This document shows positions 6,296 through 30,062 of a stretch of DNA of 32,000 bases, piece by piece. Source of the DNA: Pseudomonadota bacterium. GTDB lineage: Bacteria; Pseudomonadota; Alphaproteobacteria; Rhizobiales; Hyphomicrobiaceae. Location: positions 8,235 through 40,234 of the forward strand of contig JBJOGJ010000005.1 in the NCBI GenBank assembly GCA_046048295.1. The letters run 5' to 3'. Both the position numbers and the translations under genes were made by a program. The notes beneath the pieces are model-generated. The model did no database searches and had not been told where the DNA came from. It was given only the letters and a program-made list of their open reading frames with translations. Within the stretch, counting starts at the first letter, position 1, and every line of letters starts with the position of its first letter.

Positions 6296-6481
6296 GACCT
6301 GGGTCTCCTCTAGACCCATTCAGCATAGCAACCGGATGTTGTAGCCGGTTGAATGCCGGGCTGCGGATTTGTTTAAAATTCGAATGAACTCGTGGATGGT
6401 GACGGCGTCCAAAAGACTATAGAGTTCGGTAATTCCGTCAGGAGCAGTTACAACCGGGTTTCAAAGGAGAGGAGAGCGAGC

Positions 6482-7546
6482 ATGCGCAAGGATGCGAGAG
6501 GATCCCTTGGGTATTTGATCAAGGCGGTCGTCGCAGCGGGTATTCTCATGCCGGCATCGGCTCACGCCCAAAGTCCCGCCGAATTCTTCAAGGGCAAGAA
6601 CGTCACCATACGTGTCGGCTTCGGCGCCGGCGGCGGATACGACACCACCACGAGGCTCGTCGCACGCTACTACGGAAAACACATTCCCGGCGCTCCGAAC
6701 GTCCTGGTCGAGAACATGCCGGGAGCCGGCGGCTTGAGACTTGCCAATTTCATGTTCAATGCCGCGCCGAAGGACGGCACGATGCTTGCGATCTTTTCGG
6801 CGCAGGCTTCGATGGAACCGCTGTTCGGCAATGATAAGGCGAAGTTCAAGGCGGATCAGTTCACCTGGATCGGCAGCATGCACACCGATATCAATTCCTG
6901 TGGTGTCTGGAAGGGCGCAGGCGTCGGTATCAATTCCTTCGATGACATGCTGAAGAGCAAAAAGGAAATCGTCTTCGGCTCGACCGGCCCGCAATCTGAG
7001 ACGACCAAGTTTCCCGCTTTCATGAAGAAGGCACTCGGCGCCCCGGTGAAGGTTATCGAGGGCTTCAAGGGTACGAAAGACATCAACCTTGCAATGCGCC
7101 GTGGTGAGCTCGATGCGAGCTGCGGCATGTTCGAGTCCTCGGTACGCGGCGCCTACTTCGATGACTACAAGAACGGCGACCTCAAGATCATCTTCCAGGT
7201 CGGGCTCGACCGCAAAGTGCCGCTGTTCGGCAATGCCGCTCAGGTAGGCGAACTCGTAAAGGACAAAGGCAAGGAAATGCAACAGATCGCCGAAATGGTC
7301 TTTGGGCCATCTGCGATCACGCGGCCGATCGCGGCGCCGCCTGGCATTCCGGCAGACCGTGCCAAGGCCCTGTCCGATGCATTGATGGCGACGATGAAGG
7401 ATCCGGGAACCATCGCCGACGGCAAGAAGATCGGCATAGAGTGGGATCCTATGACCGGGGACAAGGTGAAGGAGCTGATGCAGCGCTTCTATGCGACACC
7501 ACCCTCGGTGGTGAAGAAGGCGATCGAGTTCACGTCGATGAACTGA
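6482..7546 (+). CDS. Bug-family (TctC-like) periplasmic substrate-binding protein of tripartite tricarboxylate transporters
   Basis: Signal peptide LIKAVVAAGILMPASAHAQ, then the family hallmark FFKGKNVTIRVGFGAGGGYDTTTRL...VENMPGAGG. ATG 6482 is preceded by AAAGGAGAGGAG. The upstream extension from 6392 in the ORF track is rejected. Confidence 0.9.
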   Translation: MRKDARGSLGYLIKAVVAAGILMPASAHAQSPAEFFKGKNVTIRVGFGAGGGYDTTTRLVARYYGKHIPGAPNVLVENMPGAGGLRLANFMFNAAPKDGTMLAIFSAQASMEPLFGNDKAKFKADQFTWIGSMHTDINSCGVWKGAGVGINSFDDMLKSKKEIVFGSTGPQSETTKFPAFMKKALGAPVKVIEGFKGTKDINLAMRRGELDASCGMFESSVRGAYFDDYKNGDLKIIFQVGLDRKVPLFGNAAQVGELVKDKGKEMQQIAEMVFGPSAITRPIAAPPGIPADRAKALSDALMATMKDPGTIADGKKIGIEWDPMTGDKVKELMQRFYATPPSVVKKAIEFTSMN

Positions 7547-7613: not shown

Positions 7614-7685
7614 CGCATTTGCATCCTGGCCGAAGCGGTGCTTCGATAGAAGAAGTCAAAACAACAATGCTTGAGGGAGGCTCCG

Positions 7686-8480
7686 ATGATCTTCGATGAC
7701 GATCTCGAACAGCCTAAGATTCCCGAGTTTCCGCGCCAGATTGCACCCGATACATGGTGGTTCAGCACCTGCCTCGAGATCACAGTTCACGGGCGCAAGG
7801 TGCACAATCACAATTCCTGCTATCTGATTGCCGGCACCGACGCGACGGTCATGATCGATACCGGAATGCCGCTTGGCTGGGACGTGCTCAAGCCACAGAT
7901 CGAAACCGTACTTGCAGGCCGGCCGCTCGACTACATATTTCCCACGCATCCCGAAGCCCCGCACATGGGCAATGCTCAACCTCTCATGGACATCTATCCG
8001 GATCTCATGCTCGTAGGTGACCTGAGAACCTATCATCTTTATCTACCCGGCGAGGAGCACCGCTTTCGACACGTCGAGACAGGGTACATCCTCGAGTTGG
8101 GCGGCCGGCGGCTCGAGATGGTCCCCGCACTCGTGCACGACCTCCCAAACACACTGTGGGGATATGATCCCGAGCTCGAGATCCTTTTCGTAAGCGACGC
8201 CTATCCCTACACGCACGACCACATGGCCGGACAGTGTGCCATGATCTCGAGCGAACTCCCTCGAACGCCGGTGGCAGAAGACACCAGTCGGGTGATTGAA
8301 GGCGCGCTCAACTGGACGAGGTTCGTAGACCCTGAGGTGATAGCCTGCGAGCTGGATGCCTACCTCGAGCGATACCCGACGAGGATTATCGCCCCAGCCC
8401 ATGGAGCTGTCACGATCGAGCCTGAGGTTCTAACGAATGTCTTCAAGTCCGGTCTGCGGCGAGTGAGTGTCACATCATGA
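7686..8480 (+). CDS. MBL-fold protein resembling the di-iron core domain of flavodiiron proteins / ODP; most metal ligands retained
   Basis: Motifs at FDP-like spacing: FPTHPEAPHMGN (H-x-E-x-P-H instead of H-x-E-x-D-H), LVHDL, ILFVSDAYP and IIAPAHG. GGGAGG lies 5 nt before ATG 7686. No flavodoxin or rubredoxin domain. Confidence 0.7.
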   Translation: MIFDDDLEQPKIPEFPRQIAPDTWWFSTCLEITVHGRKVHNHNSCYLIAGTDATVMIDTGMPLGWDVLKPQIETVLAGRPLDYIFPTHPEAPHMGNAQPLMDIYPDLMLVGDLRTYHLYLPGEEHRFRHVETGYILELGGRRLEMVPALVHDLPNTLWGYDPELEILFVSDAYPYTHDHMAGQCAMISSELPRTPVAEDTSRVIEGALNWTRFVDPEVIACELDAYLERYPTRIIAPAHGAVTIEPEVLTNVFKSGLRRVSVTS

Positions 8481-9259
8481 GCCGCATCGAAAACATTTCA
8501 GAAGACGTGCTGGTGCTAACGGATCTCGTTCCCGTCGACGGTCGCGTCAACTGGCTACCGGCCGACGCCGAGGGCGTCGAGCCGCACAACAAGTATGTCA
8601 TCCAATCCAAGGAAGCGGTTCTGGTGATAGATACCGGCGTTGCCGCACACGAGGAAAGCTTCCTTCGGACGCTCGGAGAAGTCGCACAGGGACGCCAGGT
8701 CGTCGTACTGACAACCCGCAACGAGCTCATTTGCTCAGGCAACCTGGGAGCCATCATCGATACCTTCCCGGACGTCTTCGTCGTCAGTCCCAACGGCTTG
8801 CCACCTGTCGGCCTCGTTCACCTCAAGAATGCGCACCGCGAGGATATCAGGACCTACAGACCCCAGCACAAGGAGCACCTATCGGTCGCTGGTTTCGAGC
8901 GCCTGGAGATCGTCACCCCGGTCATCCGGATTCTCAACACCGGTTGGGTCTTCGACCATGAGACGAAAACCCTGTTTACCTCTGATTTCTTCGGTGCCGA
9001 CATGATGTCCACCTCGAACGATACGGCAATCCGCCGCGATGGCAGCGGCCTGCCCTCACGCGACTTCATCAGAAGATGCATCCTGGCGAAATTCGACTGG
9101 TTGGAACGGGCACAGACAAAGGTGCTCGAACAGCGGTGGGAAGAGCTTTTCGAAACCTATCAGCCGGAGGTCATTGCGCCGGCACATGGCCGGGTCCAGT
9201 TCGGACGCCAGTTGGTGAGGCAGGCAATCTCCGACTATAGGACCGCTGCGTTCGGTTAG
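8477..9259 (+). CDS. Degenerate paralogue of the preceding MBL/di-iron-core-like protein (most metal ligands lost)
   Basis: Same architecture: VLVIDTG, TLFTSDFFG and VIAPAHG are conserved. The ligand motif reads LTTRNELICSGN (His to Arg, His to Cys) and the middle His is Arg (VIRIL). The start overlaps the upstream stop as ATGA (8477-8480). Confidence 0.65.
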   Translation: MSRIENISEDVLVLTDLVPVDGRVNWLPADAEGVEPHNKYVIQSKEAVLVIDTGVAAHEESFLRTLGEVAQGRQVVVLTTRNELICSGNLGAIIDTFPDVFVVSPNGLPPVGLVHLKNAHREDIRTYRPQHKEHLSVAGFERLEIVTPVIRILNTGWVFDHETKTLFTSDFFGADMMSTSNDTAIRRDGSGLPSRDFIRRCILAKFDWLERAQTKVLEQRWEELFETYQPEVIAPAHGRVQFGRQLVRQAISDYRTAAFG

Positions 9260-9282
9260 GTAGGGCGCGAAATGCGCCTACC
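9259..9282. terminator. GC hairpin between convergent genes (possible bidirectional terminator)
   Basis: ggtagg(g)cgc - gaaat - gcgcctacc, 9 bp with one bulge. It spans both stop codons (TAG 9257-9259, CTA 9278-9280). No U-tract. Confidence 0.35.
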
Positions 9283-10393
9283 TGTGCCAACGGCGCAGCT
9301 CCATCGCTGCCTCTACGCGACCGCGCGCCAGCCGGCTTGCTGCAGTACGCGGCTCCCCCCCCTCTCTTCGTGCAAGTTCGAGAGTTTCCCGCGTATTGCT
9401 CGAAACCTTCTCGCGCACGGTTGCCAACGCCTGCTGCTCCGTACCTCCGTGATATTCGACTGACGCAGTTATAACTCCTCCCGCATTGGCTATAAAATCC
9501 GGCACGTTGATTATCCCCGCCTCGTGCATGGCGCGCTCCGCAGCGGCAGTCGCCGGAATGTTGGCTCCCTGTATGACCAGTCTCGCCTTGAGCTTCCCGA
9601 CGTTGGCTTCATTGATGACATCAGGTCGGGCAGCCGGAATCCAGATATCGCAATCGACCCCGATGAGATCCTCGCTCTCAATCGTCTGCGCCCGCTCGTA
9701 CTCTGTCACCAGACCGCCTCGAGCCTTGATGGCGTGTAGGGTCGGAATATCTATGCCATCGGCGGAATGGATTGCACCTCGACTGTCGGAGGCCGCCACG
9801 AGGCGACAGCCCTTCTCCGCCAGAAAACGCGCAGCATGGTAGCCAACCGCTCCGAAACCTTGCACGGCAACACGTGCCCCAGCCAGTTGCATGTTGACGA
9901 ATTCGCCCGCGACCTCCGCGGCAACGGCAACCCCGAGACCGGTCGCGCCGATCTCATCGAGCGGAATCCCACCGAACTCACGCGGAAGGCCGACGGCACG
10001 GCCGATTTCGTCCCAGACCCATGCCATGGCTCTCTCGTTGGTCCCCATGTCCGGCCCAGGAATATAATCCGAAAGCGTCTCGATTGACGTGGCAAAAGCC
10101 CGTACCAATAATTCCTTCTGGGCCACCGGCATGCCGGGATCGGCAAAAATCACCGACTTGGCTCCTCCATGGGGAAGACCTGCAGCGGCATTCTTGAGCG
10201 TCATCGCCCTCGCAAGTCGAAAACATTCCTCGAGCGATACGTCGGGCGCCATACGTGTGCCGCCGATCGCCGGCCCGGCGGCGACATTGTCGACAACGAC
10301 GATTGCTTTAAGACCTATGCCTGGCTCATGGATGTGAAGGATACGCGCCGGCCCCAGGTCGTCATTGAAACGGAATGCGTCGCTCATCGCCAT
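9278..10393 (-). CDS. Glu/Leu/Phe/Val dehydrogenase family amino-acid dehydrogenase (short form, 371 aa)
   Basis: N-terminal substrate domain: GPAIGGTRM...MTLKNAAAGLPHGGAKSVI (catalytic Lys region). Rossmann motif: VAVQGFGAVGYHAARFL. C-terminal NAGGV. Confidence 0.85.
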   Translation of the reverse strand: MAMSDAFRFNDDLGPARILHIHEPGIGLKAIVVVDNVAAGPAIGGTRMAPDVSLEECFRLARAMTLKNAAAGLPHGGAKSVIFADPGMPVAQKELLVRAFATSIETLSDYIPGPDMGTNERAMAWVWDEIGRAVGLPREFGGIPLDEIGATGLGVAVAAEVAGEFVNMQLAGARVAVQGFGAVGYHAARFLAEKGCRLVAASDSRGAIHSADGIDIPTLHAIKARGGLVTEYERAQTIESEDLIGVDCDIWIPAARPDVINEANVGKLKARLVIQGANIPATAAAERAMHEAGIINVPDFIANAGGVITASVEYHGGTEQQALATVREKVSSNTRETLELARREGGEPRTAASRLARGRVEAAMELRRWHR

Positions 10394-11494: not shown

Positions 11495-13834
11495 TCAGGA
11501 TTTCTCACTTCGGGCTTTGGCAATGAGCTCGACAACACGATCGGGAAGAATCGGAGTTTCCGATATCCGGACACCGAAGGGACTGAGTGCATCCTCGACC
11601 GCGCCGACGATCGCTGCGATGGAGGCTATCGTACCGCCTTCACCTGCCCCCTTCACGCCCAGCGGATTCAACGGTGAAGGCGTCTCCATGTGATGGAGCT
11701 CGACGCGTGGCACATCCGGCGCAATCGGCAGGAGATATTCGGCAAAAGTCGTGGTAACTGGCTGACCATCGTCGCTGTGCCGGAGCCGTTCGAAAAGAGC
11801 ATTTCCGACACCATGCGCGACACCTCCAACGACCTGCCCCTCGACAATCTTAGGATTGATGGCTCGACCGCAGTCGTGGTTGACGACGAAGCGCAAGATC
11901 TTGATGTGCCCCGTCTCGATGTCCACCTCAACCTCGGCGACATGCGCGCTGTTGGAATAAGTGGACTGGTCGGGACGGAAGTGAGCGGTTGCCTCGAGTC
12001 CCGGCTCATAGTCCGTACGCATGGCATATCCGTACATCCCGACCGAATGAACGGCGACTTCACGCAGGCTCTTGCGCAGCCCGGGCGCACCTTTCACCTG
12101 GACGTTCCCATCGACTAGTTCGAGATCAGACGCGTCGGCCTCAAGGAGATCCGAGGCCACCTTCCTGATCTTCTCGCCAAGCTCGATCGCGGCAACATGT
12201 ACCGACGACCCGGCATTGACTGCCGTGCGGGCGGCAAACGTGCCGATCCCGAGCCCGGTCGCCGCGCTGTCGCCCGTTACGACATTTATGTCTTCGTAGG
12301 AGACGCCGAGTTGGTCAGCGGCAATCTGGGCAAGGGTCGTGTGGTGCGACTGACCCTGGGGCGTCGCCCCCGTGTAGAGCGTGATCTTGCCGGTCGTGGA
12401 AACGCGAAGGGTCGCACTTTCATAAGGTCCAAGCCCCGTAGCCTCGACGGCACTCGAGATCCCGACACCGATGTAGCGGCCGCGCTTGAGCGCCTCAGCC
12501 TGGCGGACAGAAAATTCTTTGTACCCTGCCGCTTCCAGAGCTTTTTCCTGGCAGGACGGATAATCCCCGCTGTCATATGTCACTGGGCGGCCGTCACGGA
12601 AAACGAGCCCGACTTTGTAAGGCATCTGCTCGGGCTTGACGAAGTTGCGGCGACGCACTTCGGCTCGGTCGATCCCGAGCTTCGAAGCAACAAGGTCCAT
12701 CATGCGCTCCATGGCGAACACCGCCTGCGGCCGGCCGGCACCGCGTACCGGGGTACACTGGATCTTGTTGGTATAGACGACGACGAGATCCATGGAGTAG
12801 GCCGGCAACAGATAGGGCCCCGGCACGGTCGTCGCTGCGATCCAAGGCAGCACGAGCCCCCAGGGGAGGTAGGCGCCGGCATCGTGGACAAGGCGACCAC
12901 GAAGACCGCGGAGACGTCCATCAGCCTCGACAGCAATCTCCAAGTCCCAATACTGGTCGCGCTCCTGATGGGTCGCCAGGAAGTTCTCGCGCCGATCCTC
13001 GATCCATTTCACCGGCCGGCCAAGTTTCATGCTGGCAACAGCGGCTACGGCATACTCAGGGTAGAACGCGCCCTTGGGCCCGAAGCCACCACCGACGTCC
13101 TGGGTAATGACTCGAACCTGGTGATCCGCGAGGTCGAGAACATCGAGGTAGGCGCGCTTGATTCTGTGCGAGCCCTGCGTCGATGCGTAGACCGTGAGCT
13201 GATCGATATTGCGATCATAATTCGCCAGTACACCGCGGCACTCGATGAAGAAAGGTCCGCCACGATGCTGGAAGAGCCGTTCCGAGAAGACGTAAGGCGC
13301 GTCGCGGAAGGCAGCTTCGATGTCACCCGCCGCTATCGGCACGCGCGCCGCGATATTATCGCCATTGCCGGCGTGGGCGACGGGAGCACGCACGTCCAGC
13401 CCGGAAAGGCAGTCGCTGACCGCGGGCAGGACATCGTAGTCGACATCGACAAGAGCGACGGCATCCTCTGCGATATGGCGCGTATCCGCTATGACCGCTG
13501 CAACCGGCTCGCCCACATAGCAAACCTCGTCGCGAGCCAGTGCGTAGGGAACGTGGAGCTGCTTGATGGCCGCGGGCGCGACGTACAATGGAAGCGGATT
13601 GCTGCGCATGGCTTCCGGTAAATCGGCGAACACGATAATGTCGTGCACGCCTGGAAGCGCTCTTGCCGCGGCAACGTCAATGGACAAGAGCTTGGCATGA
13701 GCGTGCGGACTTCGGACAAAAGCAACAGCCAGTGTGCCTGGCAGCTTGATGTCGTCGACGTAGCGGCCGTTACCGGTGAGAAGTGACGGATCCTCCTTGC
13801 GCAGGACACTCGCGCCGAACCAACGAGCCCCCAT
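11495..13834 (-). CDS. Xanthine dehydrogenase/aldehyde oxidase/CoxL-family molybdopterin-binding large subunit
   Basis: N-terminus: MGARWFGASVLRKEDPSLLTGNGRYVDDIKLPGTLAVAFVRSPHAHAKL. Active-site loop: CTPVRGAGRPQAVFAMER. C-terminal motif: NPLGVKGAGEGG. GGAGG lies 7 nt before ATG 13834, so the longer ORF from 13897 is trimmed. No 2Fe-2S domain is fused. Confidence 0.9.
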   Translation of the reverse strand: MGARWFGASVLRKEDPSLLTGNGRYVDDIKLPGTLAVAFVRSPHAHAKLLSIDVAAARALPGVHDIIVFADLPEAMRSNPLPLYVAPAAIKQLHVPYALARDEVCYVGEPVAAVIADTRHIAEDAVALVDVDYDVLPAVSDCLSGLDVRAPVAHAGNGDNIAARVPIAAGDIEAAFRDAPYVFSERLFQHRGGPFFIECRGVLANYDRNIDQLTVYASTQGSHRIKRAYLDVLDLADHQVRVITQDVGGGFGPKGAFYPEYAVAAVASMKLGRPVKWIEDRRENFLATHQERDQYWDLEIAVEADGRLRGLRGRLVHDAGAYLPWGLVLPWIAATTVPGPYLLPAYSMDLVVVYTNKIQCTPVRGAGRPQAVFAMERMMDLVASKLGIDRAEVRRRNFVKPEQMPYKVGLVFRDGRPVTYDSGDYPSCQEKALEAAGYKEFSVRQAEALKRGRYIGVGISSAVEATGLGPYESATLRVSTTGKITLYTGATPQGQSHHTTLAQIAADQLGVSYEDINVVTGDSAATGLGIGTFAARTAVNAGSSVHVAAIELGEKIRKVASDLLEADASDLELVDGNVQVKGAPGLRKSLREVAVHSVGMYGYAMRTDYEPGLEATAHFRPDQSTYSNSAHVAEVEVDIETGHIKILRFVVNHDCGRAINPKIVEGQVVGGVAHGVGNALFERLRHSDDGQPVTTTFAEYLLPIAPDVPRVELHHMETPSPLNPLGVKGAGEGGTIASIAAIVGAVEDALSPFGVRISETPILPDRVVELIAKARSEKS

Positions 13835-14080
13835 CAATAGGCCTCCCGGCATTTGCGTTCGTGGAATTCGCCGGAGCCCACCCTCCAGGTGAGGCAATGG
13901 TATGAGCTATGACCGCCTAATGGTTGATCGGCCACCCTTCGAAACTGCATTTCCTCACCCCGACGTTTGCTTCTTTGCCGCAATAACTTGCACGATTTGA
14001 CAGCCGCGATCCAGTACCATGCCAACCGATTTACTTGGGATGAGCCGGCAGCTAGTGTGCGCCGAAGCCAGGGGGATTCC

Positions 14081-14728
14081 ATGTTCTATGACGCAGTGAA
14101 GAACGACCACGGTCTCAAGTATGATCCAGTCAAGGCACTGGTCTGTCCGCGACCGATCGGCTGGGTTTCGACGCTGAGCAGCACGGGCGTCGCAAATCTT
14201 GCCCCCTACAGCTTCTTCAACATGGTCGCGGAGAAACCTGCCTACGTCTTCTTCTCGTCGAGCGGCTCGAAAGATAGTTGGCGCAACGCCGAGGCAACCG
14301 GCGAGTTCGTATTCTCCCTGGCCACCTACGAATTGCGGGACAGGATGAACATGACCGCGGCGGTCGTGCCACCAGAAGTAAGCGAATTCGAGCTTGCGGG
14401 ACTGACGCCAGCACCTTCCCACTTCGTGAAGCCGCCACGGGTCGCCGAAAGCCCTGCAGCCCTAGAATGCAGGTATTGGAAGACTGTGGAACTCCCAGAC
14501 CACGACGGCAAAGGCAAGCAACATGCCGTGGTCTTCGGACTGGTAGTCGGCATCCACATCGAGGAGCGGGCAATCAAGGACGGCATCATCGACACCGGCG
14601 CGCTCGGGCTCATAACCCGCCTCGGATACCGCGACTATGGCATTTTGCGCCCCGACGACGTCTTCACCATGGGCCAGCCGTATGTCGACGCCAACGGCAA
14701 TGTCGGGAAAAAACCTCCGCCGAAGTAG
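14081..14728 (+). CDS. Flavin reductase-like (FMN-binding split-barrel) protein
   Basis: RPIGWVSTLSSTGVANLAPYSFFN...VFSLATYELRDRMN...ESPAALECRY is typical of flavin reductase domain proteins. Start taken at ATG 14081 (MFYDAV...). Confidence 0.8.
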   Translation: MFYDAVKNDHGLKYDPVKALVCPRPIGWVSTLSSTGVANLAPYSFFNMVAEKPAYVFFSSSGSKDSWRNAEATGEFVFSLATYELRDRMNMTAAVVPPEVSEFELAGLTPAPSHFVKPPRVAESPAALECRYWKTVELPDHDGKGKQHAVVFGLVVGIHIEERAIKDGIIDTGALGLITRLGYRDYGILRPDDVFTMGQPYVDANGNVGKKPPPK

Positions 14729-14736
14729 GATCGTTC

Positions 14737-15876
14737 CTATGTCGAGAGGATGTTGATCGAACAAGCCCCGTGGTCCAGCCCGGCAATACCGCCACCGGTA
14801 CAGTGGGCAAGCGCGACCCTGGCCCCCTCCACCTGACGGGCACCAGCCTCCCCACGCAAGTGCCATACAAGCTCGACGAGTTGGGCGGCCCCGGTAGCTC
14901 CGACTGGATGGCCTTTGCATAGAAGGCCACCCGACGGGTTGACCGGGATGCGGCCGCCAAGGGATGTGGCGCCTGATTCAAGTAGCGCCGCAGCCTCGCC
15001 GCGCCCGCAAAAGCCGAAAGCCTCATAATAAAGGAATTCGGCAATGGTGAAGGCGTCGTGCAGTTCGGCAACGTCGATGTCATCGGGGCCGATCCCGGAT
15101 TCCTCGTAGATCTGTCTTGCCGCGCGCATGGTGATCTCAGGCGTGGTCATGTCTCGAAAACCGGTCTTGTAGAGCCCGGAATTGAGGACCGAGCCCTTGA
15201 CCCAGACGGGCTTCTTCGCGGCTTGCTTCACCTTCTCGGCGCTGCAGAGAACGAGGGCGGCTGCGCCATCGCCGGTCGGACAGCAGTGGAGAAGCGTGAA
15301 CGGATCGCAGATCGGCCGCGTGCTCATTACCTCATCAACCGTCACCTCATTCTGATACTGGGCAAAAGGATTGAGCGCCGCATGACGATGGGCCTTTACG
15401 GCGACCCCGGCCAGTTGCTCACGCGTGATGCCGTGCTCGTGCATGTAGCGGTTCGCCCGCATGGCATAGAGCGCCGGCATGGTCAGACCGATGGCAACGT
15501 CCCAGTCGTCCGGCTGTCCTGGCAAAACACCACCGCCGAGCGCCGTCAACTTGTCGACCCCGATGACGAGGGCAACATCCCATCGCCCATCCGCAATCGC
15601 CATGTAGGCCTCTCGGAAGGCTGTCCCACCTGACGAGCATGCATTTTCGCAATTGACAACTGGCAGCCCCAGCATGCCGAGAGGCCGCAGAACCCTTTGC
15701 CCGACGAGCCGGCCGGAATAGGCCGAACCAAAATAGGCGGCCTCGATGTCCCGGCGGTCGAAACCGGAATCCACTATTGCCGCCTTGACCACCGGCCAGC
15801 CCAGGTCCTGGACCGAGAGCTCAGGGTACTTCTTGATACGGCACATCGCGGCGCCGGCAATCGCAACGTCACGCAT
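14737..15876 (-). CDS. SCP-x/thiolase-like acetyl-CoA C-acyltransferase (nucleophilic Cys present)
   Basis: VVNCENACSSGGTAF (nucleophile motif), NPSGGLLCKGHPVGATG (His), AHCTGGG. The HDCF-type loop reads ELHDAF. ATG 15876 lies 8 nt after the DUF35 stop. Confidence 0.85.
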   Translation of the reverse strand: MRDVAIAGAAMCRIKKYPELSVQDLGWPVVKAAIVDSGFDRRDIEAAYFGSAYSGRLVGQRVLRPLGMLGLPVVNCENACSSGGTAFREAYMAIADGRWDVALVIGVDKLTALGGGVLPGQPDDWDVAIGLTMPALYAMRANRYMHEHGITREQLAGVAVKAHRHAALNPFAQYQNEVTVDEVMSTRPICDPFTLLHCCPTGDGAAALVLCSAEKVKQAAKKPVWVKGSVLNSGLYKTGFRDMTTPEITMRAARQIYEESGIGPDDIDVAELHDAFTIAEFLYYEAFGFCGRGEAAALLESGATSLGGRIPVNPSGGLLCKGHPVGATGAAQLVELVWHLRGEAGARQVEGARVALAHCTGGGIAGLDHGACSINILST

Positions 15877-15884
15877 GGACTGTT

Positions 15885-16292
15885 TCAATCCTGTTTCCGG
15901 AAGCAGTGACTGAGGACAGGCGTACCGTCCTCCTGACGGTAGATTTCCTTTACGTCCAGCTCGACAGTGCAACCTATGGGCGGCGGCGACGACGGATCGC
16001 AGGCAATCGGCGCAGAGACACGCACCCCTTCCTCAAGGTCGATATAGGCGATGACATAAGGCACCCTCCAGCCTTTGCGGGCAACATGAACGACCGTGAA
16101 GGAATAGAGCGTGCCGGTGCGGGGGAGTTGCACCTTTTCGATCTTCGTCGACCAGCACGATGGGCAAATCCCAGGCTTCGGGAAAACGACACTGCGGCAA
16201 TTGGTACATATGCCCCCAAACATGAAGGGCACATCCTCAACATAGGCGACGGAGCCCGGCAGGGCCCATGCCTCCGCAGCCTGTTCGTTCAT
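15885..16292 (-). CDS. DUF35 (OB-fold plus zinc-ribbon) thiolase-associated protein
   Basis: 4-Cys ribbon CTNCRSVVFPKPGICPSCWS followed by an OB-fold segment (GTLYSFTVVH...PYVIAYIDLEEGVRV). GGGAGGAG RBS before ATG 16292 (MNEQAA...). Confidence 0.85.
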   Translation of the reverse strand: MNEQAAEAWALPGSVAYVEDVPFMFGGICTNCRSVVFPKPGICPSCWSTKIEKVQLPRTGTLYSFTVVHVARKGWRVPYVIAYIDLEEGVRVSAPIACDPSSPPPIGCTVELDVKEIYRQEDGTPVLSHCFRKQD

Positions 16293-16428
16293 CGTTTCTC
16301 CTCCCGCCCGCAATTGCAGTCGAAAGTGGATACGATTATTCTCCCCTCGTCAATCGCGCGTGGATCAACCCGCGCGCTCCAAGAACAATCGAATGCGCGC
16401 CTCCGGAAGGCGTGCCGGAGGAAATTGC

Positions 16429-17649
16429 ATGGCGGCCGGCCACGGAGCCCTCGGTCACATCCGCGTTCTCGATCTGACCGTATTCCTGTCGGGGCCCTAT
16501 GCGACGCAGATGCTCGGCGATCTCGGCGCCGATGTCATCAAGATCGAGCCGATGGACGGCGACCAGACACGCAACCTGCCGCCCAACTTCGTCGGCGAAG
16601 ACAGCGTCTACTATCATAGCCTGAACCGGAACAAGCGTAGCGTAGCGGTCGACTTGCGAAAGGCCGAAGGGCAACGGCTGGTCCAGCGTCTCGCAGAGCA
16701 GGCCGACATACTCATCGAAAACAATCGCCCAGGGGGCATGGCCAAATACGGGCTCGGCTACGATGACCTGAAGCGGATCAACCCGCGACTGGTCTATTGC
16801 TCGATCTCCGGCTTCGGACAGGACGGCCCCTTCCGGGACATGCCGGCCTACGACATGGTCGTCCAGGCCATATCGGGCGGCATGAGCCTTACCGGCGAAC
16901 CGGACGGCAGGCCGGTGCGCTCAGGCATTCCCATCGGCGACATTGGTGCCGCCCTCCACGCTGTTATCGGTATACTTGCTGCAATCGAGGCGCGACACAG
17001 AACTGGACTGGGACAGTATATCGATATCGCCATGTTGGACTGCCAGATCGCCATGCTGAGCTATCAGGCGGCATATTTTCTCGCATCCGGCAATGTCCCG
17101 AAGCCGCAAGGGCGCGGCCATGATTCCATACCGACCTACCGCTCATTCACGGCCGGTGACGGGCGCGAATTCGTAATTTGCGCGAATACGGATCGAATGT
17201 GGCGCTCGCTTTGCACGGCGGTCGGCCGAGAGGATCTAGGGCGCGACTCCCGACTTGCGACGAGACCGCAGCGGTATGAGCATCGCCATGAAATCTGGCA
17301 CGCACTGGAAACCGCGTTTCGTGAAAAGACGGCGGCCGAATGGGTCGAAATCCTTCGCATTGCAGAGGTTCCCGTTGGAGAAGTCAACACGCTCGACCAT
17401 GCGCTTACCCACCCGCAGGTCCAGCACCGGGATATGGTTCTCAACCTGAAGAGCGCCGGGTTGCACGTCGAAGTCGCTGGCAATCCCGTGAAAATGCCGG
17501 AATGGGGTGAACACCCTCCACGGTTTCCTCCCCGACATGGTGGCGATACGCGCCAGGTTCTGGCCGACGAACTCCGATTGAGCGAAACTGAAATCGACGA
17601 ACTGATAGCGATTGGCGCTGTTGGCGTACCCAAATCGGAGCGGGCCTAG
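16429..17649 (+). CDS. Family III (CaiB/BaiF/Frc-type) CoA-transferase
   Basis: IRVLDLTVFLSGPYATQMLGDLGADVIKIEP...YYHSLNRNKRSVAVDL...ILIENNRPG...GIPIGDIGAAL (catalytic Asp region). GGAGGA lies 6-7 nt before ATG 16429. Confidence 0.9.
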   Translation: MAAGHGALGHIRVLDLTVFLSGPYATQMLGDLGADVIKIEPMDGDQTRNLPPNFVGEDSVYYHSLNRNKRSVAVDLRKAEGQRLVQRLAEQADILIENNRPGGMAKYGLGYDDLKRINPRLVYCSISGFGQDGPFRDMPAYDMVVQAISGGMSLTGEPDGRPVRSGIPIGDIGAALHAVIGILAAIEARHRTGLGQYIDIAMLDCQIAMLSYQAAYFLASGNVPKPQGRGHDSIPTYRSFTAGDGREFVICANTDRMWRSLCTAVGREDLGRDSRLATRPQRYEHRHEIWHALETAFREKTAAEWVEILRIAEVPVGEVNTLDHALTHPQVQHRDMVLNLKSAGLHVEVAGNPVKMPEWGEHPPRFPPRHGGDTRQVLADELRLSETEIDELIAIGAVGVPKSERA

Positions 17650-17651
17650 CC

Positions 17652-18440
17652 ATGCGGTTCCGACTGAAATCTGGCCTGACGCTCAACTACCGGACGCGGG
17701 GCCGCGGCCGCACGGTGGTGCTTCTGCACCCGATCGGCTGTCAGCTTGGCATTTGGGACGGCGTGATCGAGGAATTGGAGAATTATTGTCGGCCCATTGC
17801 TGTGGACTTCCGTGGACACGGAGCAAGCGACGGGTCAGCCGAAGCCTATTCGCTGAGAGATCTCGCCTTCGATATAATTGAACTGGTTGAGGCTGTAGGT
17901 GCACCGCCGGCAGTCGTCGCGGGATGCTCCATGGGGGGAATGGTTGCTCAGGCAATCGCCGTAGAGGCAACCGAGATCGTAGCAGGCTTCGTCATCGCCA
18001 ACACCGGCTATACTCGCAATCAAGCGGCCCGTGAAATGCTGGAAGCGCGAGCAAAGGCAGCGGAAGGCGGAATGCCCGGCGTCATCGAGAACACGCTCGC
18101 ACGCTGGTTCAACGAGCGCTATCGTCTACTCGATCCGGAATCCGTTTCCCGTGCTCGCAATTGGCTGCTCGACGCAGACCCCGTTCAGCACGCGCACGGA
18201 TGGCGGGCAATCCGCGATCTCGATTACGCTGAGAGGCTTATCAACGTCGACAGGCCATCACTTGCAATCGCGGGCACCGAAGACCAGTCGGTCGGCACCG
18301 ATGCCATTAAGTCCATGGCTGCCGCCTTGAAGAACTGTACCTATCACCAAATAGAGGGCGCGGGCCATCTAAGCCCGCTGGAGCAGCCGCGAATATTCGC
18401 CCGCACGCTGCGCGATTTCCTCGAGACTTTGCCCGATTGA
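17652..18440 (+). CDS. Alpha/beta-fold hydrolase (3-oxoadipate enol-lactonase-like)
   Basis: VVLLHPIG, nucleophile elbow GCSMGGMVA, and a C-terminal GAGHLSPLEQP His motif. Starts 2 nt after the CoA-transferase stop. Confidence 0.85.
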   Translation: MRFRLKSGLTLNYRTRGRGRTVVLLHPIGCQLGIWDGVIEELENYCRPIAVDFRGHGASDGSAEAYSLRDLAFDIIELVEAVGAPPAVVAGCSMGGMVAQAIAVEATEIVAGFVIANTGYTRNQAAREMLEARAKAAEGGMPGVIENTLARWFNERYRLLDPESVSRARNWLLDADPVQHAHGWRAIRDLDYAERLINVDRPSLAIAGTEDQSVGTDAIKSMAAALKNCTYHQIEGAGHLSPLEQPRIFARTLRDFLETLPD

Positions 18441-18455
18441 GAAAGGACCGGTCCA

Positions 18456-20135
18456 ATGCCGAACGAAATGGCGTCACCCATCACCAGCGGCAGCAAGCGG
18501 CGTCCCGCCAGAACCCTCGCCGAGCACATCGCAGCACTCGACGCGGCGGGTCTTCTCGTCAGGATCGACAAGCCGATAAACAAGGACACTGAGCTTCATC
18601 CCCTGGTCAGGCTGCAATTCCTGGGCGGGCTTCCGGAAAACGAGCGCAAAGCGTTCCTGTTTACAAATGTCGTCGATGCTAAGGGCCGCAAGTACGAAAT
18701 GCCGGTGCTGCTTGGCGCATTGTCGTCCTCACAGCAAATCTATGCGCTTGGCATGGGCTGCGAACCGGAAGAGATCGGCGATGCTTGGAACCATGCGATG
18801 TCGAACCCGATCGCACCGGTCGAAATCAAGGATGCCGCCTGCCAGGAAATCGTCATCACCGGCGAAGATCTCAGAAAACAGGGTGGCGGCGTAGCCATGC
18901 TGCCGGTACCCGTCTCGACACCGGGCTTCGATGCAGCACCCTACCTCACCGCGACGCTCTGCATCACGAAGGATCCCGATACCGGCATCCAGAACATGGG
19001 CATGTATCGCGCGGCACTGAAGGCAACAGACCGCCTCGCCGTTCGAATGGTGGCGCGCCCGGGTGGCGCCGGCGGCTGGGTACATTGGCTGAAATACCGC
19101 GAACGTGGAGAACGGATGCCCATCGCGATCGCCATCGGAGCGGCACCCATCGTGGCGTTCACATCCCCCCAGAAGCTCGCCATCGACATCGACGAACTCG
19201 CCGTATCCGGCGGGCTGGCGGGCGAGCCGATCGAGACTGTCAAATGCAAGACTGTCGACCTGATGGTACCCGCCAACGCGGAGATCGTCATCGAAGGCGA
19301 GATCGAGGCTGGCGTCCTCGAGCCCGAAGCGCCCTTCGGCGAAAGCAACGGCTACGTCGCATTGGAAGGCTTCAACATGCCGATGAAGGTGACCGCCATT
19401 ACGCACCGGAGAAATCCGGTATTCAACGCGATAATAAGCCAGGTCACGCCAAGCGAATCGAGCATGATCAAGAAGGTGGCCTACGAGCCGCTCTTCCTGC
19501 GCCACCTGAAGAAGGAACTGGGCATAAAGGGCATCCGTCAGGTCTGCATGCACGAGGCGTTGACCAATCTCCGCCCGGTGATCTTCCTTCAGTTCGACTA
19601 CGGCACGCCGCAAACCGAGGTCTGGCGCGGGCTCCATGGCGCGTCAACTCTGCTCGCCTACTGCGGCAAACTCGTCGTAGCGGTGAGCGACGACATTGAC
19701 CCGCGATCGGTCGATGCAGTCCTTTGGTCAATCGCCTACCGGTCGAAACCGGGCGAAGACGCCTTGATTGTGCCGTACCGCGCAGGTTCCCAAGGTTCGC
19801 AATATTCCGGTGGCAAGACCGACTCGAGCCTGCTTATCGATGCTACACGCAAGCGCCTCATGGCACCGCTCGCCCTCCCGAGGAAGGAATATATGGAGCG
19901 GGCACAGGAGATCTGGGCCGAACTCGGCCTGCCTCCGTTACGCCTGAACTCACCCTGGCACGGCTATACGCTCGGCCACTGGAACGAGAACTGGGAGCGG
20001 TTCGCACAGCGTGCAGTAGCCGGAGAATGGGAGGCCAACGGCATCGAGACATTGGCCCGTCAACGCGACGGCCTAGAGGCAGAAACATCGGTATGGCTGG
20101 TCGAGGAAGATGGCGGCAAGGATGCAAAGCGCTGA
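18456..20135 (+). CDS. UbiD-family (prFMN-dependent) decarboxylase, long form (559 aa)
   Basis: UbiD motifs: GIQNMGMYR, GGWVHWLKY, DELAVSGGLAGEPIETVKCKTVDLMVPANAEIVIEGEI, EAPFGESNGY. It has about 60 extra C-terminal residues compared with the roughly 490-500 aa of E. coli UbiD or yeast Fdc1. Confidence 0.9.
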   Translation: MPNEMASPITSGSKRRPARTLAEHIAALDAAGLLVRIDKPINKDTELHPLVRLQFLGGLPENERKAFLFTNVVDAKGRKYEMPVLLGALSSSQQIYALGMGCEPEEIGDAWNHAMSNPIAPVEIKDAACQEIVITGEDLRKQGGGVAMLPVPVSTPGFDAAPYLTATLCITKDPDTGIQNMGMYRAALKATDRLAVRMVARPGGAGGWVHWLKYRERGERMPIAIAIGAAPIVAFTSPQKLAIDIDELAVSGGLAGEPIETVKCKTVDLMVPANAEIVIEGEIEAGVLEPEAPFGESNGYVALEGFNMPMKVTAITHRRNPVFNAIISQVTPSESSMIKKVAYEPLFLRHLKKELGIKGIRQVCMHEALTNLRPVIFLQFDYGTPQTEVWRGLHGASTLLAYCGKLVVAVSDDIDPRSVDAVLWSIAYRSKPGEDALIVPYRAGSQGSQYSGGKTDSSLLIDATRKRLMAPLALPRKEYMERAQEIWAELGLPPLRLNSPWHGYTLGHWNENWERFAQRAVAGEWEANGIETLARQRDGLEAETSVWLVEEDGGKDAKR

Positions 20136-24811: not shown

Positions 24812-25219
24812 CTATGCCGGCTCGAACTTCGGAATTGTCAGCTCTGGCGTGACGTCATCGAACACAACCTTCACCGGCATGTCGCAAACAACCTTGCCGG
24901 GTTCGATCCCGACAATGTTGGCCATCATCCGCGGCCCCTCCGCTAGCTCAACCACAGCCACGACGTAGGGTAGCTCGCCCTCCCATCCCTTGTGATACAG
25001 GCGGTGGTAAGTGACGAAGGTGTGAACCTTCCCTGCCCCCGATGCCTCGGTCCACCCGAAATCGATGCTGCCGCAGTGCGGGCAGATCGTGGTCGGCGGG
25101 AACCAGGACTTGCTGCAATTGTTGCACTTCGGGATCTTAAGCTTGTGCTCCCGGGCTGCCACCCAGAACGGCTCCGCCTCGGGCGAAATGTGGGGGATCG
25201 GCTTCTTGTAGTCGCTCAT
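24812..25219 (-). CDS. DUF35 (OB-fold plus zinc-ribbon) thiolase-associated protein
   Basis: MSDYKKPIPHISPEAEPFW..., ribbon CNNCSKSWFPPTTICPHCGS, OB segment GKVHTFVTYH...PYVVAVVELAEG. ATG 25219 overlaps the upstream stop as ATGA. The 235-aa ORF-track version is an Arg-rich upstream extension and is rejected. Confidence 0.85.
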   Translation of the reverse strand: MSDYKKPIPHISPEAEPFWVAAREHKLKIPKCNNCSKSWFPPTTICPHCGSIDFGWTEASGAGKVHTFVTYHRLYHKGWEGELPYVVAVVELAEGPRMMANIVGIEPGKVVCDMPVKVVFDDVTPELTIPKFEPA

Positions 25220-26409
25220 TTTTTGCTCCCGAGAATCAGTGCCGTCTCGCAAACCGTATTGCCGCCATGGCCCGAGACGAGGCCGACCTCGGCATCCTTC
25301 ACCTGGCGGTCCGGACCGTATATGCCCTGCAGCTGGCGAACGCCTTCGACAACTTGCAGCATACCTTCCACGTGGGCTTCCGAGAGCTGACCTCCGGAAG
25401 TGTTCGTCGGCATGGCTCCATCGAGCCGAAGCGCTCCGGAAGCCACGAATTCTCCGCCCTCCCCCTTTTTGCAGAAGCCATAATCCTCGAGCTGTGCGAG
25501 GACCATGTAGGTGAAGCAATCGTAGATTTGCGCGAAATCGATATCATTGGGTCCGACGCCCGCCATGGCGTATGCGGTCTTGCCGGCCTCGATCGCACCT
25601 GTGTGGGTGCCATTATCGTTGTTCTGCCAACCGGTCAGGTTGTTGAATGTACCGAAACCCTTGATATAGACCGGACGCTGCCTGAGATCCTTCGCCCGCT
25701 CCGCCGAGGTCACGACCACGGCACCCGCGGCATCCGTCTGCAGCGAACAGTCGTAAAGGCCGAACGGCTCGACGATCATGCGCCCTGCAAGATAGTCCTC
25801 CATCGTCAGAGGCTTCTTCATGACCGCTTCGGGGTTGCGAAGGGCATGCTCCCGGAAGGCCACCGCGATATGCCCGAAGTGCTCGCGCGTCGTGCCATAG
25901 TCATGCATGTGGCGGCGGGCACCGAGCGCGTGGGCAGCAACCGCACTGAAAAATCCGAGCTCAGGCCCGAACTCGGAACTTTCCATCTGCTGCGGACGGC
26001 CGGAACTGCGCATGTGGCTGGCTGTACTGGCATGCACACGCGACCAGTTGTTGCGGCCGTAACCGACCAGCACATTGGTGGCGAGGCCGGCGTCGATGAC
26101 CATTGCCGCCAACCCCACGGCCAACGCCTGGCTTGCCCCGCCATTCGTCAGCGTCGTCGAGAAGCGAGCGTCGATCCCGAGTCGCTCGCCCACAACCTGA
26201 TGGAACGTGTAGATCTCATCAGGGCCGCGGCAGATGAGGCCATCGATGTCCTTCATCTTGAGGCCGGCGTCGTCGAGCGCGGCCGCCATCGCCTGCTCGA
26301 GCAATCCGAGCGACGAGACGCCCGGCACCTTGCCAAGTCGGCTCTTTCCCGTACCGACGATGGCACAGCGATTACGCAGATGCTTGGATGGCTCGAGTGG
26401 CATTGTCAT
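25216..26409 (-). CDS. Thiolase-like (SCP-x/Ltp-type) protein lacking the nucleophilic cysteine
   Basis: Aligns without gaps by eye to the 14737..15876 thiolase. NACSSG is replaced by NGGASQ and AHCTGGG by VSGHGGN. His is kept (SEAHVEG). The loop reads IYDCF. The start overlaps the CoA-transferase stop (ATGA). Confidence 0.8.
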   Translation of the reverse strand: MTMPLEPSKHLRNRCAIVGTGKSRLGKVPGVSSLGLLEQAMAAALDDAGLKMKDIDGLICRGPDEIYTFHQVVGERLGIDARFSTTLTNGGASQALAVGLAAMVIDAGLATNVLVGYGRNNWSRVHASTASHMRSSGRPQQMESSEFGPELGFFSAVAAHALGARRHMHDYGTTREHFGHIAVAFREHALRNPEAVMKKPLTMEDYLAGRMIVEPFGLYDCSLQTDAAGAVVVTSAERAKDLRQRPVYIKGFGTFNNLTGWQNNDNGTHTGAIEAGKTAYAMAGVGPNDIDFAQIYDCFTYMVLAQLEDYGFCKKGEGGEFVASGALRLDGAMPTNTSGGQLSEAHVEGMLQVVEGVRQLQGIYGPDRQVKDAEVGLVSGHGGNTVCETALILGSKK

Positions 26410-28779: not shown

Positions 28780-29310
28780 CTAAGGATTCTTTGCTTTCTC
28801 GATCGCATCGGCGATCAGCTGCTTGGCTTCTTCATGGTCGCCCCAATGGTCGATCCTGACCCACTTGCCCGGCTCCAGATCCTTGTAGTGACCAAAGAAG
28901 TGCTCGATCTGCATGAGTGTGATATCGGGCAGATCCGTGCGCGTGACGACTTTCTCGTATCGTCGACTGAGCTTGGCGCTCGGCACTGCCAGGATCTTCT
29001 CGTCCTTGCCGCCGTCATCCTCCATGACGAGGACACCGATTGGACGACAGTTCAGCACTGCCCCAGGTATGATTGCCCGGGTATTGCACACGAGAACATC
29101 GATAGGATCGCCGTCGGACGACAGGGTATGCGGAACGAAACCGTAGTTCCCTGGATATCGCATCGGCGTGTAGAGAAACCGGTCGACGAACAACGTACCG
29201 GATGCCTTGTCGAGTTCATACTTGATCGGCTCGCCACCGAGCGGCACCTCCACCACCACGTTGACGTCTTTAGGCGGATCGTTGCCGATGGCAATTGCAT
29301 CGAGGCGCAT
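28780..29310 (-). CDS. ppa: Inorganic pyrophosphatase (family I)
   Basis: [57 protein letters not shown]...[14 protein letters not shown] is the classic soluble PPase signature. AAGGAG lies 7 nt before ATG 29310. Confidence 0.95.
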
Positions 29311-29398
29311 GAAGAGCTCCTTTGCCTGCCGGTTCTCGATGAACCGGTTGGACAGAATAGTCCATTGCATTCCATAGTCCGATCACGTCGCGCCAACC

Positions 29399-30043: not shown

Positions 30044-30062
30044 CACGACTGACACACGATTC

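Follow-up and report, generated by a model that had tools for sequence, protein, structure and literature searches.

Stand-alone flavodiiron-core-like proteins encoded as a pair with a remodelled and a degenerate ligand site: a putative two-subunit enzyme of organic-acid catabolism

Why would a bacterium encode, side by side and among catabolic genes, two stand-alone copies of the flavodiiron core? The question is raised by a gene pair, here called A and B, in a stretch of 32,000 nucleotides from a Hyphomicrobiaceae bacterium (Alphaproteobacteria, Rhizobiales; assembly GCA_046048295.1, contig JBJOGJ010000005.1, positions 8,235 to 40,234 of the forward strand), which is referred to as the window in its entirety. 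To our knowledge, flavodiiron cores are O2/NO reductases that are always fused to flavodoxin, and the one stand-alone case is a chemotaxis sensor; against this background, A/B would represent a third, uncharacterised use of the flavodiiron scaffold.

A preliminary description of the locus, made from the DNA letters and their translations, had proposed that A and B are an active subunit and a pseudo-subunit of an obligate heteromer. The profile, structure and gene-neighbourhood searches reported here broadly support that proposal and revise its account of the ligand sites. We regard it as reasonably probable that A and B form an obligate hetero-oligomer in which A carries a remodelled metal site, and that this complex would act as a catabolic enzyme on an imported organic acid.

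Fold and ligand sites of the two proteins

Gene A runs on the plus strand from an ATG at 7686 to a stop codon at 8480 (264 aa) and encodes a putative metal-binding catalytic subunit with a metallo-β-lactamase (MBL) fold resembling that of flavodiiron proteins (FDPs) and ODP. Gene B follows on the same strand from an ATG at 8477 to a stop codon at 9259 (260 aa) and encodes a putative metal-free partner subunit with a degenerate site. A Shine-Dalgarno-like GGGAGG (7675..7680, plus strand), situated 5 nt 5′ of the ATG of A, favours the start at 7686 over a TTG at 7671, and the two genes share an ATGA start/stop overlap (8477..8480, plus strand) of the kind associated with translational coupling; both elements were read from the sequence. 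A promoter and terminator scan around the pair returned counts at or below shuffle expectation. The two proteins are paralogous, with 27% identity by BLASTP (E 1e-15) and a match of the A-family and B-family profiles in hhalign at a probability of 99.7% (E 1e-25), so that the initial view of two overlapping paralogues of about 260 aa is confirmed from the open reading frames (ORFs), BLASTP and hhalign. Within the family, lengths are about 255–290 aa, and natural B-A fusions measure about 555 aa.

The resemblance of A and B to the cores of FDPs and ODP is far beyond chance. Given Pfam cut-offs of 22.7 bits for Lactamase_B and 27.2 bits for ODP (PF19583), A scores 39.6 bits (above the cut-off) and 28.7 bits (marginally above), respectively, and B scores 15.1 and 24.8 bits, both under the cut-off; in precomputed Pfam, PF19583 is assigned to many relatives, though not all. 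Compared with the PDB as a single sequence, A finds FprA as its best match (2ohh, E 1e-8), besides Moorella FprA (4e-7) and E. coli NorV, and the A family profile again has FprA as its best match (2ohh, E 7e-19; 1ycf, 1.5e-17); the phmmer and profile matches include FprA, NorV and ROO. B as a single sequence retrieves chance-level matches only from the PDB sequences, e.g., MonB and F-box proteins. Its family profile returns ODP as the best match (6qrq, E 6e-11) with FDPs next, meaning that it took a family profile, instead of a single sequence, to detect the kinship of B to ODP and FDPs.

The structural comparison points the same way. The AlphaFold2 model of A (pLDDT 93, pTM 0.90) retrieves FprA 2ohh as the best Foldseek match (E 4e-17, TM 0.71), and the top 19 matches are all FDP cores. 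The Flv1 core and ODP rank behind 2ohh (TM 0.63–0.67, with ODP at 0.63), and true β-lactamases score lower. Neither Pfam nor the AlphaFold2 model reveals a flavodoxin, rubredoxin or other redox domain in A or B; each consists of one MBL-like domain, in agreement with the initial view that an electron-transfer domain is absent. Searches of Pfam, NCBIfam, the PDB and Foldseek place the pair in none of the characterised hydrolase subfamilies (lactonase, alkylsulfatase, glyoxalase II, B1–B3 lactamase), an assignment that would have spoken against the flavodiiron-like identity. In the NCBIfam scan, flavorubredoxin models remain far sub-threshold and AiiA, B3 lactamase and SoxH-like models appear at E 0.06–0.16, far below their cut-offs. 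The zinc motif H-x-H-x-D-H is not found in A, the corresponding motif of which reads H-P-E-A-P-H.

The ligand site of A is conserved, and it is not the FDP site with a single defect. Conservation was counted among 110 close relatives of A and among 63 A relatives from several phyla. HMMER alignments to FprA 2ohh and 1ycf place motif 1, H88-P-E90-A-P92-H93 (THPEAPH; 7947..7964, plus strand; H88 at 7947-7949, H93 at 7962-7964), on HVEKDH/HTESDH, SD on ND and APAHG on APSHG. Further towards the C-terminus follow H151-D152 in VHDL (8136..8141, plus strand; D152 at 8139-8141), the bridging-Asp equivalent D171 in LFVSD (8196-8198) with a family-specific loop Y-P-Y-T-H177-D-H179-...-C184-...-E190 (together 8196..8255, plus strand), and H239 in APAHG (8400..8402, plus strand), the equivalent of the last His. 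Around motif 1, the family signature is T-H-P-E-x-P-H-M-G-N, in which H88, E90, P92 and H93 are invariant in both sets (110/110 and 63/63); D152, D171 and H239 likewise show no variation in either set, with 63/63 in the wider one.

The four motifs THPEAPH, VHDL, LFVSD and APAHG had all been recognised correctly in the preliminary description, which counted from them six of the seven FDP ligands. That count fails, as the middle His of FDPs aligns with D152 of A and not with H151, whichever of the two single-sequence alignments or the profile alignment is taken. Position 151 varies among the 63 relatives (H20/R20/K19), and with D152 invariant, the conserved candidate for the middle ligand is D152. 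The exchange of Asp for Pro in motif 1 is real, and the invariance of Pro92 makes it a family-defining signature and not a local degeneration. As judged from these alignments, A would retain five canonical ligands, with one His-to-Asp change at the middle position and one Asp-to-Pro loss; the complete FDP set H-x-E-x-D-H ... H ... D ... H is present neither in A nor in B. Several invariant or near-invariant residues of A that the earlier list did not contain have no FDP counterpart, namely C29 and H40 in the N-terminal hairpin and H177, C184 and E190 in the loop after D171, which is 3 residues longer than in FprA. H177 and C184 are conserved in 63/63 and E190 in 62/63 relatives, with H179 at 54/63, and H177/C184/E190 together with C29/H40 are the obvious candidates for completing the second metal site.

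B carries a different, likewise conserved set of residues. Its degenerate motif 1, R81-N-E83-L-I85-C86 (TRNELIC; 8717..8734, plus strand), has Arg at the first-His position (R81, 8717-8719); a second basic residue, R151 in IRIL (8927..8929, plus strand), occupies the middle-ligand position and is aligned to H151 of A, and D170 in LFTSD (8984..8986, plus strand) is the retained bridging-Asp equivalent. Counted across 62 sequences, R81 and E83 are each kept in 61 and D170 in 60, position 151 is basic (R46/K15), position 86 is C31/S14/T7, and position 85 is acidic in 60/62 (D42, E18), with Ile in the B of the window (8729-8731) as the single exception. The resulting signature is T-R-x-E-x-[DE]-[CST] ... 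[RK] ... F-T-S-D-x-F, and other distinctive residues of B are kept as well (W26, N38, H58 and N89, W157, W208 besides R81, E83 and D170). The Arg, Ile, Cys and Arg substitutions and the Glu, Asp and last His that had been listed for B are all present in the window; among the 62 sequences, however, the Ile is peculiar to the window and the last His of APAHG (position 237) is not conserved (H35, R9, Y8, L7). What B preserves is a pseudo-site, with basic side chains standing in for the two His ligands of site 1, where they would face the retained Glu and Asp. B also diverges faster than A (mean identity 31% vs. 42%), and with the invariant His/Glu/Asp set of A on the one side and Arg81 and Arg/Lys151 at ligand positions of B on the other, the proposed division into an active and a pseudo-subunit gains support.

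Pairing, gene order and natural fusions

The family to which A and B belong takes in no fewer than 122 clusters at 50% identity (E ≤ 1e-30) and ranges over Alphaproteobacteria, Actinomycetes, Dormibacterota, Chloroflexota, Steroidobacteraceae and haloarchaea. Database names seen for its members are generic only ("MBL fold metallo-hydrolase" or "hypothetical protein"), and literature searches turned up no account of stand-alone proteins paired in this way. On its sequences, it is an uncharacterised family of a known kind of fold, with a ligand pattern and a pairing of its own.

For a survey of loci, one genome per species was taken (56 loci), and the ORFs were searched with A and B profile hidden Markov models, gene choice in high-GC loci being GC3-based. 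In every locus with enough flank, in these reference genomes as well as in annotated plasmid records, B lies directly beside A on the same strand, and no orphan A was seen. The plasmid records with adjacent A and B come from cultured Rhodococcus, Agrobacterium, Roseomonas and Arthrobacter and from the haloarchaea Natrinema, Halobaculum, Halocatena and Halalkalicoccus. The pair thus recurs across Bacteria and Archaea, where a failure to co-occur in other genomes would have spoken against it. The order is A→B in close alphaproteobacterial relatives and B→A in Actinomycetes, Dormibacterota, Chloroflexota, Steroidobacteraceae and others, and the start/stop overlap is kept in both orders: the 61 within-pair junctions have a median of -4 bp, with 29 at -4, 11 at -8 and 5 at -1.

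In one locus (L033), A and B are a single in-frame B-linker-A polypeptide, and an exhaustive search brought to light natural fusions of this type in six separate 50%-identity clusters, all with B first and 534–580 aa long (L033 9074-10741; L060 9001-10668; proteins P0167-P0172, P0175, P0176, P0178 and P0215). P0167-P0172 consist of five close relatives, including that of the cultured Mesobacterium pallidum, and a sixth at only 34% identity. The Mesobacterium fusion, modelled from an alignment of fusions plus B rows, reaches pLDDT 82 and pTM 0.75 with disorder confined to the linker, and the model fits two halves that are held in place relative to each other. As a separate observation, the fusions have Glu at the equivalent of H179 of A and Arg at the last His of B.

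The two proteins also co-diverge: the more alike two A proteins are, the more alike their B partners tend to be (r = 0.90 between the pairwise identities; maximum 0.08 in 500 permutations), although co-inheritance would yield much of this correlation. The specific argument for a physical association of A and B comes from the fusions and from a coupling that is preserved through the inversion of gene order. Taken together, universal adjacency, both orders, overlaps, six fusion clusters and co-divergence lend strong genomic support to the heteromer proposed at the outset, from which we infer the physical association.

These data bear directly on the idea that A and B are merely co-operonic paralogous enzymes, each a homo-oligomer of its own, with B acting independently of metal. 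The distinctive residues kept by B, which is hence under selection, would suit such an arrangement, but recurrent in-frame fusion in six divergent clusters, the lack of any orphan A, and pairing in every sufficiently flanked locus, through order inversion and across domains of life with the overlaps conserved, render it quite improbable.

Two divergent B-A pairs occur in tandem in a few loci (L034, L035, L037, L040 and L053, among them Sinomonas and Nocardioides); in four actinomycete loci they are 2–2.4 kb apart, and in three Sinomonas loci A1 and A2 are 44–46% identical. In Sinomonas L040, both pairs belong to one operon. Between them lie the genes of an SBP_bac_5 binding protein and a BiuH/RutB-like cysteine hydrolase, and after them those of a PuuE-like cyclic-amide hydrolase and an HpcH aldolase. 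The arrangement in L040 suggests two sequential A/B-catalysed steps on a nitrogen-containing substrate.

Genomic surroundings and proposed function

Directly upstream of A in the window lies the gene of a TctC/Bug-type periplasmic solute-binding protein (6392..7546, plus strand; Pfam TctC E 1e-4, below cut-off), the true start of which is probably Met31 at ~6482, before a signal-peptide-like stretch. It belongs to a neighbour cluster that is present in 12 loci, and the TctC protein probably works together with the pair. Downstream, a Glu/Leu/Phe/Val-type dehydrogenase gene (9278..10393, minus strand) is convergent with B; the two ends are 18 nt apart (9259-9278), and no terminator-like hairpin was detected between them. 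Further along follow an enoyl-CoA hydratase and, in the region of 11495-13897 and 13955-14920 (minus strand), the large subunit of a molybdopterin hydroxylase of the xanthine-dehydrogenase family, beside which no FAD or 2Fe-2S small subunits were detected, as two minus-strand ORFs just upstream lack a Pfam match and the plus-strand ORF is a flavin reductase. Similar molybdopterin large subunits are seen near the pair in L004, L013 and L017.

The window further holds two SCP-x-type thiolase-like genes and a family-III CoA-transferase (14737-15972, 24812-26409 and 26406-27563, minus strand), one thiolase having an adjacent ChsH2-like zinc-ribbon/OB-fold partner (24812-25519); to judge from its genes, such a set would be typical of the aldolase/thiolase systems that cleave the side chains of CoA esters. 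A co-directional block at 16360-20135 encodes the other family-III CoA-transferase, an alpha/beta hydrolase and a UbiD-type decarboxylase, and is followed by an MFS transporter, a TauD-type dioxygenase, TctC and Amidohydrolase_2; in total, the window has two TctC proteins besides the one next to A, and one Amidohydrolase_2. We take this block to resemble the CoA-transferase/UbiD systems for aromatic and furan dicarboxylates, i.e., those of phthaloyl-CoA decarboxylase and furandicarboxylic acid (FDCA) decarboxylase. Housekeeping or unrelated genes at both edges, namely a TadE/G-like pilus protein, a response regulator and a Na/Ca exchanger at 1145-2923 and an inorganic pyrophosphatase, a GTPase and YidC at 28780-32000, bound the catabolic island to ~6.4 kb to ~28.7 kb.

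That the pair sits in a catabolic cluster just after a Bug binding protein, as first described, is accordingly confirmed in the window, and elsewhere TctC is the commonest immediate neighbour, too. Among 68 immediate same-strand neighbours, which fall into 55 Pfam families, TctC leads (12/68) and other uptake components come next; generally, the pair is found in operons with solute-binding proteins or transporters, CoA ligases or transferases, aldolases and amidohydrolases. Individual arrangements are diverse: IclR-TctC-A-B-TctC (L064); A-B-DHDPS-TctC-luciferase-like monooxygenase (L063); ABC transporter-B1-A1-SBP_bac_5-isochorismatase-like-B2-A2-PuuE-like-HpcH aldolase in the Sinomonas locus L040; SDR-CoA ligase-B-A-137-aa ORF-Amidohydrolase_2 (three times, with more copies downstream) in a chloroflexotal locus (L046); CoA-transferase-HMG-CoA lyase-LeuCD-like-TRAP-amidohydrolase-Rieske-A-B in Natrinema (L067); and, in Roseomonas (L070), a similar set of LeuCD-like, HMG-CoA lyase and CoA-transferase genes, B being immediately followed by an HpcH aldolase. 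The idea of one pathway context common to all loci was rejected, given the 55 families among the 68 neighbours and the outcome of an all-against-all clustering of neighbours within 7 kb, in which no cluster occurs in more than 13 loci. Nor was a pyridine-ring pathway of the maleamate type supported, in which A/B would be the ring-cleaving dioxygenase: the Amdase-like, isochorismatase-like and deacetylase-like neighbours have EutA-like, BiuH/RutB-like and PuuE-like matches in NCBIfam, each short of the equivalog cut-off, and there is no NicE/NicF-type match. From its surroundings, the pair behaves as a self-contained two-gene cassette in varied organic-acid and amide catabolic operons, usually beside a substrate-importing binding protein.

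The search for a redox partner concerned, above all, two candidates. The stand-alone Flavin_Reduct gene of the window (PF01613; 13967..14728, plus strand; 4.7 kb from the pair) encodes a domain that is also found at the C-terminus of class-C flavodiiron proteins; it was rejected as a general partner, since the surroundings of the other A/B pairs hold no homologue of it, and nothing luciferase-like or HpaB-like that could be its partner was detected in the window. A small Rieske protein (~120 aa), coupled to Amidohydrolase_2, was likewise rejected as a general redox partner, being found in 9 of ~56 loci (~15%) and in Natrinema and not in the window. Flavodoxin, rubredoxin and reductase are not recurrent among the 68 immediate neighbours. 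As a side observation, several loci across phyla share a translationally coupled module of Amidohydrolase_2 (~405 aa), a Rieske ferredoxin-like protein (~120 aa), a 94-aa protein and a ~300-aa protein, the latter two without Pfam family (L002 3473-6267; L061 4344-7156; L062 4471-7266; L067 7496-8787). The four-gene form is alphaproteobacterial and is absent from most loci and from the window, while in the haloarchaeon Natrinema its first two genes are likewise found with the pair; the Amidohydrolase_2/Rieske module may serve as an electron donor in some loci or else constitute an enzyme of its own.

In the mechanism we favour, A and B would be obligate partners in a hetero-oligomer, if only an A-B heterodimer, built from stand-alone flavodiiron-core/ODP-like subunits. 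A would hold a remodelled two-metal site, most likely of iron, with H88, E90, D152 and the bridging D171 at site 1, and H93, H239 and D171 at site 2, where H177 or E190 would replace the Asp lost to Pro. B would be metal-free, its pocket being filled by Arg81 and Arg/Lys151 in charge pairs with E83 and D170; it would stabilise A and may help to bind an anionic substrate. The complex would be cytoplasmic and catalyse an early step on an imported, usually carboxylic, organic acid without a dedicated reductase. With regard to the chemistry, our tentative preference is for an O2-dependent oxidation or cleavage with the substrate as electron source, because the nearest relatives all bind O2 or NO at di-iron sites, the ligand set is more acidic than that of FDPs, and the hosts are aerobes; the small Rieske gene in 9 of ~56 loci and in Natrinema was counted towards the same leaning. 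An acidic ligand set has been linked to the holding of Fe(III) (PMC7785958). A more specific version, in which a reductase-independent non-haem iron oxidase or oxygenase (di-iron or Fe/Mn) arose from the flavin-less core by rewiring of the second site (Pro for Asp, new His/Glu/Cys ligands) and the Arg pseudo-site of the partner binds the carboxylate substrate, is speculative and, to our mind, rather doubtful.

Several points weigh against the proposal as a whole or in part. A is one canonical Fe2 ligand short and could, as far as its residues tell, be mononuclear or bind Zn or Mn. With the Rieske gene in about 15% of the loci and the flavin reductase in the window only, no electron donor is conserved, which counts against an oxygenase of any kind that depends on a reductant. 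The majority of MBL-fold proteins are hydrolases, some of them with Fe, and PqsE and glyoxalase II both use Fe centres; PqsE, moreover, is among the fold matches of the fusion model (TMq ~0.31 vs. the two-domain model). The gene contexts are too heterogeneous for a substrate to be named. Co-inherited operon genes in general would show adjacency and co-divergence, and the A half of the fusion model rests on 6 sequences only.

Metal-dependent hydrolysis of a lactone, thioester or amide ranks a close second among the chemistries, and we hold it to be possible. As an explanation in its own right, the pair would be a metal-dependent hydrolase (lactonase, acyl-CoA or other thioesterase, or cyclic-amide hydrolase) with Zn, Mn or Fe in A and a structural B; though somewhat unlikely, this is a serious contender. 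It accords with the Lactamase_B score of A (39.6 vs. 22.7 bits), with the lack of a conserved reductase partner, with neighbourhoods rich in CoA-transferases and ligases, enoyl-CoA hydratases, PuuE-like, BiuH/RutB-like and Amidohydrolase_2 proteins, and with PqsE, an MBL-fold thioesterase, among the fold matches. However, sequence, profile and structure all put A nearest to the O2/NO-reactive di-iron clade of FDPs and ODP, the H-x-H-x-D-H zinc motif is missing from an unusually carboxylate-rich ligand set, and hydrolase steps appear to be covered already by other genes of the operons.

The kinship to O2/NO-reducing FDPs could also mean that A-B is an FDP-like scavenger or protector that receives electrons in trans, e.g., from the small Rieske ferredoxin encoded near the pair in nine loci and Natrinema, and shields aconitase-like or IlvD-type Fe-S dehydratases, for which the LeuCD-like and IlvD/Edd proteins of some loci would be clients. 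We consider this improbable: there is no flavodoxin/FMN site, the obligatory electron entry point of FDPs, the Rieske and Fe-S dehydratase genes are missing from most loci including the window, aerobic hosts have little need for O2 scavenging, and the pair is embedded in substrate-specific operons beside binding proteins. Even more remote is a sensor of ligand, O2 or iron resembling ODP, which would control expression or transport of the adjacent catabolic genes. The closeness of the B profile to ODP, the marginal Pfam ODP score of A and the frequent adjacency of IclR, GntR or LysR regulators point in its direction; on the other hand, these conventional ligand-binding regulators are already present, an output domain is lacking, MCP and Che families occur neither in the window nor among the 68 immediate neighbours, and two divergent pairs in one actinomycete operon fit sequential enzymes better. 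The original guess at an oxygenase, hydrolase or sensor is thereby narrowed to the first two.

If the hetero-oligomer is an enzyme, it would be a new metalloenzyme type in organic-acid degradation pathways that are now annotated generically, and if the oxidase/oxygenase reading is true, an O2-detoxifying scaffold would have been repurposed for carbon catabolism across Bacteria and Archaea. We regard A/B as a good target for metalloenzyme discovery, not yet as demonstrated new chemistry. Cultured carriers make the pair tractable, including Sinomonas gamaensis, Agrobacterium leguminum AT13, Rhodococcus rhodochrous GD02, Roseomonas haemaphysalidis, Halalkalicoccus jeotgali B3 and, with a natural fusion, Mesobacterium pallidum.

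Comparison with known systems

MBL-fold catalytic subunits that work with a paralogue devoid of metal ligands are known from the β-CASP nucleases CPSF73-CPSF100 and IntS11-IntS9. These are eukaryotic RNA-processing nucleases with β-CASP inserts and zinc sites, and no specific relationship to A/B was detected in any search. PqsE and glyoxalase II, in turn, can hold Fe-containing binuclear centres and hydrolyse their substrates without a redox partner, but they possess the classical H-x-H-x-D-H motif, are homomeric, and are much less similar to A/B than the FDPs are.

ODP (PF19583; Treponema/Thermotoga) shares with A and B the stand-alone, ~250-aa MBL-like architecture without flavodoxin. According to Muok et al. 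(2019), it is reportedly a single-gene O2/Fe(II) sensor that works with a chemoreceptor. A/B, in contrast, is a strict pair of two paralogues with another ligand pattern and no chemotaxis genes, and the structural match of ODP to A (TM 0.63) is weaker than that of FDPs.

FDPs (FprA, ROO, NorV/flavorubredoxin) have the same MBL-like di-iron core, with which the motifs of A are in register (H-x-E-x-?-H, bridging Asp, last His). They differ in having a fused flavodoxin/FMN domain, and the Asp of H-x-E-x-D-H and the middle His of FDPs are an invariant Pro and an invariant Asp in A. Moreover, FDPs form a head-to-tail homodimer and are encoded in loci for O2/NO detoxification, whereas A comes with a degenerate paralogue and lies in operons for catabolism in aerobes.

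The closest functional analogy that we can draw is with the class-C FDPs FLVA/FLVB (Flv1/Flv3, Flv2/Flv4) of oxygenic phototrophs. The FLVA/FLVB (Flv1/Flv3) genes are always paired, one isoform having canonical Asp/Glu/His ligands and the other "neutral and basic residues", and the proteins form hetero-complexes and, in coral symbionts, a single-polypeptide A+B form (PMC11408035; PMC7785958). The arrangement that had not been recognised at first sight belongs to a family for which no paper was found, but has a precedent as a principle, as the same logic of a canonical and a degenerate partner applies to A/B and its natural fusions. The differences are nevertheless considerable. FLVs comprise three domains (MBL, flavodoxin and flavin reductase; ~570–600 aa), are restricted to phototrophs and reduce O2 with photosynthetic electrons, while A and B have one domain of ~260 aa each and belong to heterotrophic bacteria and haloarchaea. 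By the same token, A/B would offer a simple, flavin-free system in which to ask why FDP-type proteins repeatedly evolve canonical-plus-degenerate heteromers, as they have done in the photosynthetic FLVA/FLVB system.

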